NCBI GenBank assembly: GCA_038065115.1
Contig: JBBTRS010000004.1
Location: 1-50,679, forward strand
Origin: Patescibacteria group bacterium
GTDB lineage: Bacteria; Patescibacteriota; Minisyncoccia; UBA6257; MFKM01
Direction: 5' to 3'
DNA length: 50,679 bases
Notes under the pieces: generated by a model
Seen by the model: the letters and a program-made list of their open reading frames with translations, nothing else
Told to the model about the DNA's origin: nothing
Database searches by the model: none
Program-made: the position numbers and the translations under genes
Shown here: positions 10,213 to 10,278 of the stretch, piece after piece
Numbering within the stretch: position 1 is the first letter of the stretch
Layout: every line of letters starts with the position of its first letter

Positions 10213-10278
10213 CTAATCTCCATTCATCGGAAAATTGCCATTATTATCCATGGTGGTTCCTTCAACGGGATCAATCAT
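10213..10278 (-). CDS. Unannotated 21-aa peptide MIDPVEGTTMDNNGNFPMNGD
   Basis: Hand-translated. SD AAGGAGGTG lies 7 nt upstream of the ATG. A strong terminator follows 15 nt after the stop, and a TTGACA-N17-AATACT promoter-like site lies upstream. Confidence 0.55.
   Translation of the reverse strand: MIDPVEGTTMDNNGNFPMNGD

Follow-up and report, generated by a model that had tools for sequence, protein, structure and literature searches.

Does an open reading frame of only 21 codons, lying convergent with a gene for an S9A prolyl oligopeptidase (POP) in a patescibacterial genome, represent a gene in its own right, and is its product a substrate of the neighbouring peptidase? The question is raised by a 50.7-kb stretch of DNA (hereafter the window, by which the whole of the analysed sequence is meant), in which a first-pass annotation had proposed that the frame forms a dedicated transcription unit and, speculatively, one half of a protease-substrate pair. 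S9A POPs cut after Pro in peptides of less than approximately 30 residues. The physiological substrates of bacterial POPs are, to our knowledge, generally unknown, and we know of almost nothing that has been established concerning the small proteins which Patescibacteria encode in their reduced genomes.

Results

Organisation of the mini-gene locus

Taken alone, a 21-codon ORF is worthless as evidence, since 124 ORFs of at least 20 aa are present in 9 kb; what raises this frame (the mini-gene) above chance is that the whole unit is conserved in related loci. The features of the locus are collected in Table 1. The ORF, its strong Shine-Dalgarno (SD) site, the TTGACA promoter-like site and the 11-bp G+C-rich hairpin described in the first-pass annotation were all confirmed by direct reading, the minus-strand codons of the mini-gene being ATG ATT GAT CCC GTT GAA GGA ACC ACC ATG GAT AAT AAT GGC AAT TTT CCG ATG AAT GGA GAT TAG.

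Table 1. Features of the POP and mini-gene locus and genes flanking it in three lineages
Feature	Position in window	Strand	Remarks
37-aa Cys-rich ORF, MKHVKLLRSAQGLPKTVKSKRSKAVKYSTCMCCDQQD	5538..5425		Right downstream of the rSAM/SPASM gene
rSAM/SPASM gene	7021..5576		On the other side of POP from the mini-gene
176-nt element, copy A	7849..8024	-	Promoter-like TTGATT-16-TATCAT, approximately 110 nt, then hairpin and T-run 7900-7877
S9A prolyl oligopeptidase (POP), 680 aa	8103..10145	+	Pfam Peptidase_S9_N (2e-84) and Peptidase_S9 (1e-53); convergent with the mini-gene
Two-way intrinsic terminator hairpin	10168..10198		11-bp stem, 9-nt loop; separates the stop codons of POP and mini-gene
Mini-gene CDS, 21 codons and TAG	10213..10278	-	ATG 10278-10276, TAG 10215-10213; product MIDPVEGTTMDNNGNFPMNGD
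Shine-Dalgarno site, AAGGAGGTG	10284..10292	-	Ends 5 nt 5' of the ATG (7 nt if the GGAGG core is counted)
Promoter-like TTGACA-17-AATACT	10338..10366	-	From a motif scan; putative function
176-nt element, copy B	10408..10583	-	Upstream of, and co-directional with, the mini-gene
Flanking genes, window			GNAT, APH
Flanking genes, L001			Lipoprotein, AdoMet decarboxylase, CN hydrolase
Flanking genes, L002 lineage			NUDIX, glycosyltransferase

A recognisable SD site is missing from approximately 40 of the 44 long genes of the window, and AGGAGGT occurs just six times in its 50.7 kb, two of these occurrences preceding mini-ORFs. The SD site of the mini-gene had been called the best of the region; its strength and its distance of 7 nt from the ATG (as counted from the GGAGG core) hold, while its rank is that of one of the window's two strongest, the other and equal one preceding another mini-peptide gene. 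The promoter-like sequence was the second-best match of an 8-kb promoter scan, although promoter-like matches as a whole were not enriched over shuffles (33 found, 28 expected), and a 7-bp inverted repeat (10344-10338 / 10325-10319) overlaps its -10 box by the left arm.

At the other end of the mini-gene, the terminator hairpin (delta G -20.4 kcal/mol, z -5.3) begins 14 nt past the stop codon, so that the GC-rich stem reported previously is present at a spacing one nucleotide shorter than the 15 nt first given. On the minus strand the hairpin is followed by CTTTTATTTTTT, with a T-tract at 10156-10167. As the hairpin also begins 22 nt past the POP stop codon, it would serve both genes as a shared, two-way terminator.

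Conservation and coding evidence

Two further loci, L001 and L002, which come from related metagenome lineages, encode POPs with 86 and 89% identity, respectively, to that of the window, and each contains an orthologous mini-ORF (3948..3874, peptide MCRDPDPPEGTTPDDDGNYPMNGD, in L001; 2619..2542, peptide MIGPDDGPPEGTTPDDDGDYPMNGD, in L002) that is convergent with the POP gene and meets the same hairpin. Of these frames JGI had called the L002 allele (25 aa) and NCBI none, and one ENA call ran through the stop codon. GGAGG lies 5-8 nt 5' of the ATG in all three alleles, AAAGGAGG being invariant across the three lineages, and TTGACA is kept at the equivalent relative place in both L001 and L002, with a weak -10 box in all three. 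The orthologous hairpins are of similar stability (-21.9 and -21.6 kcal/mol; z -5.3 to -6.5 over the three alleles), the pairing of the stem is preserved by compensatory changes (GGGGCGUAA/UUACGCCCC, GGGGUACAA/UUGUACCCC and GUGGUGCAA/UUGCACCAC), and the 14-nt spacer between stop codon and hairpin is kept in the three lineages. With -35 box, SD site, start, stop and terminator retained throughout, and with substitutions of the coding type described below, the proposal that the mini-ORF constitutes a dedicated unit appears, at the level of sequence, to be well founded.

The conserved spacing of stop codon and hairpin could also be read as that of a regulatory leader peptide, in which translating the Pro, Asn and Asp codons would set the activity of the terminator and, through it, the extent of antisense read-through towards POP, and in the window base pairs can indeed form between the SD region and the terminator's 3' arm. 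This long-range pairing, considered as a riboregulator, was rejected, as it is present in the fold of the window allele and is not conserved in L001 or L002. Moreover, the gene next past the terminator is the convergent POP and not one in the direction of the mini-gene, the stem would be out of reach of a ribosome positioned at the stop codon, and codon sensing alone does not explain the conservation of amino acids at the C-terminus. A leader function of this kind is, in our estimation, extremely improbable.

The encoded peptides are 21, 24 and 25 aa in length, and the N-terminal indels which separate them, of 3 and 12 nt, keep the frame. Among these three closely related alleles, pS (0.44-0.75) exceeds pN (0.15-0.18) according to the Nei-Gojobori method (NG86; Fisher p 0.0003-0.025), and third codon positions account for 9 of 18, 7 of 16 and 7 of 15 substitutions. 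The summed pN/pS ratio is 0.29 in the frame of the mini-gene, 1.35-1.62 in four other frames, with 1.41 for the codon-aligned antisense ORF of 59 aa; the remaining frame with a low ratio (0.38) holds stop codons in L001 and L002, and the mini-gene frame is the sole one of the six that is both open in the three lineages and low in pN/pS. The POP genes (dS 0.4-0.7, omega approximately 0.13) indicate that neutral divergence among the three lineages is appreciable. A conserved ORF of 37 codons within the 176-nt element (see below) served as an internal control; its pN is approximately equal to its pS, and it was rejected as a gene.

Because the indels are in frame, purifying selection is frame-specific and the terminator stem has undergone compensatory change, we consider the mini-gene very likely to be a real, translated small protein-coding gene, a conclusion drawn from three alleles of close relatives. 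The same data bear on the alternative that what is conserved here is DNA or RNA with a regulatory role, be it the far side of the POP terminator, an antisense transcript or a small RNA, in which the ORF is incidental. The stretch adjoins the shared terminator, conservation between the window and L001 is good in the 5' UTR as well, the fold of the full-length transcript surpasses those of shuffled sequences (z -2.95), and the 37-codon ORF illustrates that a conserved frame in this neighbourhood can prove non-coding. A function of that kind does not, however, account for substitutions that concentrate at third codon positions, for a low pN/pS confined, among the open frames, to that of the mini-gene, or for indels in multiples of three; in addition, the SD site, ATG and stop codon are retained in every allele, and there is no Rfam match. 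The regulatory reading is accordingly one that we hold to be quite improbable.

The mini-peptide and its distribution

The mini-peptides, of 21-25 residues, are strongly acidic, with Pro, Gly, Asn and Asp abundant and hydrophobic stretches absent, and on account of this composition they are presumably soluble and disordered. Cys is absent from the window allele, while one allele has a single N-terminal Cys. The C-terminal 17 residues or so are conserved (P-x-EGTT-x-D[DN][DN]G[ND][YF]PMNGD), whereas the N-terminus varies in both length and sequence, and it is this C-terminal part that selection appears to target. Two Pro-X bonds are conserved, one past the Pro that precedes xEGTT and the other within [YF]P|MNGD.

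The mini-gene is a hitherto unclassified bacterial small-protein gene without a sequence family: neither Pfam nor NCBIfam matched the mini-peptides, an exhaustive phmmer search of 1.84 billion protein representatives returned only the mini-peptide itself and two spurious repeat proteins, and a padded, concatenated peptide query against 5.8 billion proteins returned P0121 only, which was rejected as a new variant as it is the L002 peptide with its TAG stop read through. When 241 million metagenome records were searched with the degenerate DNA pattern GGNRAYTWYCCNATGAAYGGNGAY (G[ND][YF]PMNGD), L001 and L002 were the only real loci recovered; the other 21 of 23 matches were due to chance, 19 falling within ORFs of far greater length and two in short ones that are unrelated (L018 and L021). 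The same pattern had no match in IMG/VR. A scan of GTDB genomes with a single POP protein query and six peptide patterns revealed no true relative, and the species of the window is therefore not among the representatives. The POP protein of the window is 100% identical to one in a MAG designated 'Patescibacteria group bacterium', and contigs that encode it come from groundwater wells at Hainich.

POP and the mini-gene were found together in all three informative loci (POP identity of at least 86%), in none of nine patescibacterial loci with a POP identity of at most 71%, and in none of 80 GTDB loci. The last were obtained with a 32-sequence POP alignment as query and are mostly from distant phyla, the mini-gene motif being present in none of them. 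Absence of the mini-gene was noted beside the patescibacterial POPs of L114 (71% identity), L004 (69%), L118 (68%) and L125/126 (66%; P0013), as well as beside those of L028, L029, L034, L030 and L037 (60, 59, 56, 49 and 38%, respectively). The expectation that the same pairing would be seen in related genomes was thus borne out by L001 and L002, and not by the more distant POP orthologues. In L125/126 a giant alpha-2-macroglobulin gene follows POP.

A different acidic ORF, MENSSPTPVFSHTGSDEEGPDHDPYDEESYP, with a net charge of -9 and five Pro residues, is found in L119/L120 (POP identity 66%), where it is convergent with POP and ends 72 nt past it, before a hairpin; since only 8 nt of contig precede its ATG, its full length may be greater. 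As a homologue of the mini-peptide it was rejected, since the likeness is one of composition only (shuffle p 0.36-0.52), and we treat it as a lead and not as evidence. Comparisons of the window peptide with this ORF and with the tail of a six-Cys peptide of L120 gave shuffle p values of 0.18-0.52, with one of 0.03 before correction, and pointed to no more than a similar composition.

A two-gene module with changing neighbours

Homology to the window is limited to positions 7816-10374 in L001 and 7866-10263 in L002, and the genes outside these limits differ (Table 1). The physical pairing of POP and mini-ORF to which the first-pass annotation drew attention is therefore one that persists in three lineages with different flanks, and the two genes appear to form a 2.5-kb module that is kept intact while its neighbours change, the synteny being that of three alleles. 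No transporter, export, immunity or tailoring gene is present in this conserved module.

The single POP of the window is orthologous to POPs that are widespread in Patescibacteria, in which homologues at 60-66% identity number in the hundreds. Its catalytic triad is intact (the Ser of GGSNGG, Asp and His are invariant in 32 homologues), and among solved structures it best matches the prolyl endopeptidase of Myxococcus xanthus (2BKL, 461 bits), as against 277-302 bits for GmPOPB, PCY1 and OphP (277 bits for GmPOPB). Since its orthologues are common in Patescibacteria without the mini-gene, POP does not need the peptide, and the adjacency of the two genes may be a historical accident.

The module had furthermore been described as a repeat-bounded cassette, and the two 176-nt direct repeats (98% identical) are indeed in place, as copies of an element that is conserved and non-coding. 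Copy A is divergent from POP and lies directly upstream of the GNAT start, and it has a counterpart upstream of POP in both L001 and L002; behind copy B, six codons from the 5' end of GNAT survive as a relic (10424-10404). In the L002 lineage a second copy occupies the same position upstream of the mini-gene (L116 361-517), and in L001, where the POP-side copy is the only one, a remnant of the start of GNAT comes after it. Each time the start of a gene, be it that of GNAT, of NUDIX or of a GNAT relic, follows the end of the element within a few bases, and the make-up of the element, as judged from four sequences, would fit a terminator-controlled leader or a small RNA; no relevant Rfam family was matched, whether at the gathering threshold or with E up to 1. 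In sibling assemblies of the window population copies A and B differ over approximately 85 nt, and because the copies are less alike there, the 98% identity in the window may stem from gene conversion or from assembly. A circular form of the cassette, suggested by Logan contigs of 2557 nt, was rejected, as such contigs merely break at repeated k-mers.

The radical SAM gene of the neighbourhood

An rSAM/SPASM gene lies 3.2 kb from the mini-gene, beyond POP, and clusters that combine an S9 protease with an rSAM enzyme forming cyclophanes exist (PMC12957482). We weighed whether the mini-peptide could be the substrate of this enzyme, receiving a triceptide-like cross-link at [FY]PM, with POP as leader peptidase; L120, too, has an rSAM/SPASM gene beside its POP. 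The nearest NCBIfam matches of the window enzyme are, however, the thioether-forming QhpD, SCIFF and PapB maturases (under the cutoff of each family), and an SD-led, Cys-rich ORF, which is a gene in NCBI and ENA records, is located right downstream of it (Table 1). This 37-aa peptide is the predicted natural substrate of the rSAM enzyme, and the mini-peptide, which in the window has no Cys, is not a likely partner. On the 6-kb contig of L001 there is furthermore no rSAM gene, neither in the 1.8 kb upstream nor in the 2.2 kb downstream, and the rSAM protein of L120 is only 25% identical to that of the window. The rSAM enzyme was rejected as maturase of the mini-peptide on the basis of these observations, and we judge such a role highly improbable.

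Discussion

The best overall explanation of the data, to which we assign a probability of roughly 0.75, is that the mini-gene is a genuine and independently expressed small gene of one narrow lineage of groundwater Patescibacteria. In the scheme that we envisage, a sigma-70-type promoter with the conserved TTGACA would drive a short mRNA, to which read-through from the upstream leader-like element may add; the unusually strong SD site would load ribosomes on this mRNA, and the hairpin held in common with the convergent POP gene would end its transcription.

With less than 30 residues and two conserved Pro-X bonds, the mini-peptide is the kind of molecule that a POP can cut, and cleavage is chemically plausible; a protease-substrate pairing is in this sense plausible as well. 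The most likely working relation would be hydrolytic, in that POP trims or clears the peptide and yields the invariant MNGD tail together with an acidic fragment. Such trimming or clearance nonetheless remains a tentative proposal, and it is likewise doubtful, if possible, that a functional relation of any kind connects the two products.

A further-reaching suggestion is that of a dedicated, RiPP-like protease-substrate pair, in which POP cuts at the two Pro residues and releases or macrocyclises a bioactive segment. The pair is intact in three lineages in spite of their different flanks, the size and conserved Pro-X bonds of the peptide suit S9A specificity, and the strong SD site is like the one in front of the RiPP precursor gene (5538..5425). 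The first-pass annotation had envisaged a 13-residue core between P4 and P17, which does not survive comparison with the other two alleles, in both of which a third Pro lies inside the proposed core (EGTTP|DDDG.YP). Moreover, the POP is nearest to hydrolytic endopeptidases and far from GmPOPB, PCY1 and OphP, its orthologues are widespread without the mini-gene, and the module is without export or immunity genes. The acidic, Pro-rich ORF that is convergent with POP in L119/L120 might be taken as a second instance of such a pair, but it is located at a contig end and has no ordered similarity to the mini-peptide. We regard a dedicated pair of this kind as unlikely.

Among known systems of a comparable kind, PqqA- and MftA-type precursors are of 20-30 aa, with a variable N-terminus, a conserved C-terminal core and strong expression, and are always found beside rSAM/SPASM and RRE (RiPP recognition element) partners, with Glu/Tyr or Val-Tyr cores. 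The mini-peptide resembles them in size and in its variable N-terminus and conserved C-terminus, but is without NCBIfam or Pfam match. The fungal MSDIN/POPB system of amatoxins and phallotoxins likewise involves a short ribosomal peptide, two Pro residues and an associated S9A POP; here, in contrast, there is neither a conserved leader nor a 17-aa follower, with only four residues (MNGD) past the last Pro, the segment between the Pro residues is the conserved part and is not hypervariable, the N-terminus is variable, two alleles have an extra Pro, and the POP is of a housekeeping type, closer to the M. xanthus enzyme than to GmPOPB, and the organism is bacterial. The analogy with MSDIN macrocyclisation drawn previously is consequently not sustained, and macrocyclisation of the mini-peptide by POP is very improbable. 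The class III lanthipeptide analogy (FlaP), which shares with the present locus a bacterial POP beside a small precursor gene, is equally difficult to uphold, as the window peptide is without Cys, neither a LanKC synthetase nor a Ser/Ser/Cys motif is present, and the neighbours are GNAT, APH and rSAM.

Bacterial precedents for the action of an S9 protease or POP on small precursors do exist. In the WprA2/WprB2/WprP2 cyclophane (triceptide) cluster, the S9 protease WprP2 acts on a small ribosomal precursor (PMC12957482), and the present locus likewise combines, in one neighbourhood, an S9 protease and an rSAM/SPASM enzyme with a small peptide that bears aromatic-Pro-X; it differs in that its rSAM enzyme is of the thioether type, has its own Cys-rich peptide and lies outside the module of POP and mini-gene, and in that no RRE chaperone was seen. 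In the myxarylin/biarylitide pathway the leader of a tiny precursor is taken off by a POP of general function (PMC12951456), which provides a parallel to a very small ribosomal precursor with a non-specialised POP, processing by POP being a prediction in the present case; that pathway includes a P450 cross-link and a methyltransferase, whereas the module described here has no tailoring enzyme.

A minimal two-gene CPR pathway, in which a housekeeping-type POP is the sole processor, by cutting or cyclisation at the conserved Pro-X bonds, of a dedicated 21-25-aa precursor that yields a conserved acidic signal or effector directed toward a host bacterium, is for us an improbable interpretation; were it true, bacteria in general, and Patescibacteria in particular, would gain their first system in which POP alone makes a peptide product. 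Of the two copies of the leader-like element that frame the module, one also precedes the operon of GNAT, rSAM and precursor genes, and on this reading the two peptide systems might be co-regulated. If the link with POP is functional, the mini-peptide would be a natural substrate of a bacterial POP that lends itself to direct testing, and if it is not, the mini-gene would be a lineage-specific orphan of modest interest. In either event, small proteins are systematically missed in genome annotation, and the mini-gene, with its 21-25 codons, its signal of selection, its exceptional ribosome-binding site and its fixed linkage to the gene of a peptidase that has to act on short peptides with Pro, offers a clean example of them.

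Repeat element around the POP module

The module formed by the S9A prolyl oligopeptidase (POP) gene and the convergent 21-codon mini-gene is framed, in two lineages, by two copies of a conserved element (~160-176 nt), in which a promoter-like sequence (TTGATT-16-TATCAT) is followed by approximately 110 nt, a hairpin and a T-run. A few bases beyond the end of the element there is always a gene start, belonging to a GNAT gene, a NUDIX gene or GNAT relics. The element encompasses a 37-codon ORF that is without coding selection, and it had no match in Rfam. Candidate roles for it are a small RNA, a riboswitch-like element or a leader controlled by its terminator.

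Features of the POP region and its relatives (L001 and L002, relatives that retain the module; L116, contig of the L002 lineage; L119 and L120, separate lineage)
Feature	Location	Strand	Remarks
Conserved element, copies A and B	window 7849-8024 and 10408-10583	minus	176 nt each
Conserved element, relatives' copies	L001 1530-1698; L002 202-362; L116 361-517		
GNAT 5'-end relic	window 10404-10424	minus	MKIKIR then stop; in copy B
GNAT 5'-end relic	L001 ~1468-1545	minus	MKIKIRQAKNENIPKILNVLGKDII then stop
Cys-rich peptide gene	window 5425-5538	minus	37 aa, MKHVKLLRSAQGLPKTVKSKRSKAVKYSTCMCCDQQD
rSAM/SPASM maturase gene	window 5576-7021	minus	related to QhpD, SCIFF and PapB
Strongly acidic, Pro-rich ORF	L119 3604-3699 = L120 8718-8813	minus	MENSSPTPVFSHTGSDEEGPDHDPYDEESYP; POP of lineage 66% identical; start coincides with contig end, so length as read may be incomplete
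rSAM/SPASM gene and 52-aa six-Cys peptide gene, upstream of POP	L120 4834-6332		

Copies A and B are 98% identical to each other in the window; in sibling assemblies from that population, copy A differs at approximately 25 positions (window 7911-7995 versus L108 3809-3893, and L111). The discrepancy points to gene conversion between the two copies, strain variation or assembly collapse. The GNAT 5'-end relics in copy B and in L001 indicate that the element-GNAT order is the ancestral arrangement and that a later duplication placed the element, together with the first GNAT codons, at the opposite end of the module.

A 75-nt direct repeat (4819-4893 and 7148-7222; 77% identical) is a further sign of local rearrangement: the RaSEA-like radical SAM gene at 3814-4881 has its 3' end repeated, as a fragment, in the interval that separates the start of the rSAM/SPASM gene from the stop of the GNAT gene. 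At the extreme end of the window, a 46-nt segment (50634-50679) carries the hairpin ACACTTC...GAAGTGT; in the L002 lineage, segments 89-91% identical to it (L002 2736-2781 and L116 525-570) separate copy B of the element from the promoter of the mini-gene. It may represent a palindromic element that is dispersed in the genome, or the lineages may differ in synteny here.

Translation signals and gene calling

A recognisable Shine-Dalgarno (SD) sequence is missing from the starts of approximately 40 of the 44 long genes in the whole window, and strong SDs occur only ahead of the two mini-peptide genes and of a small number of other genes (at 45846-46340 on the minus strand and 46509-47642 on the plus strand). 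The POP gene carries TATAAT approximately 16 nt ahead of its ATG, a spacing which suggests that its mRNA is leaderless or has a very short leader.

The ENA-derived gene calls include a 46-aa protein, P0121 (L115-L117), which is the 25-aa L002 peptide with its TAG stop read through and the terminator crossed, a gene-calling artefact that masks the true mini-gene.

Cys-rich peptides and rSAM/SPASM genes

In the L119/L120 lineage, the acidic ORF is convergent with the POP gene and is followed by a hairpin. The six-Cys peptide gene of L120 overlaps the stop of the rSAM/SPASM gene, and its product ends in APDDGDGNG.

In the window, the GNAT gene precedes the rSAM/SPASM maturase gene, directly downstream of which lies the Cys-rich peptide gene, bearing the strongest SD of the window (AAGGAGGTGAT). 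This patescibacterial genome thus likely encodes a RiPP pair of the ranthipeptide type, made up of this maturase and peptide.
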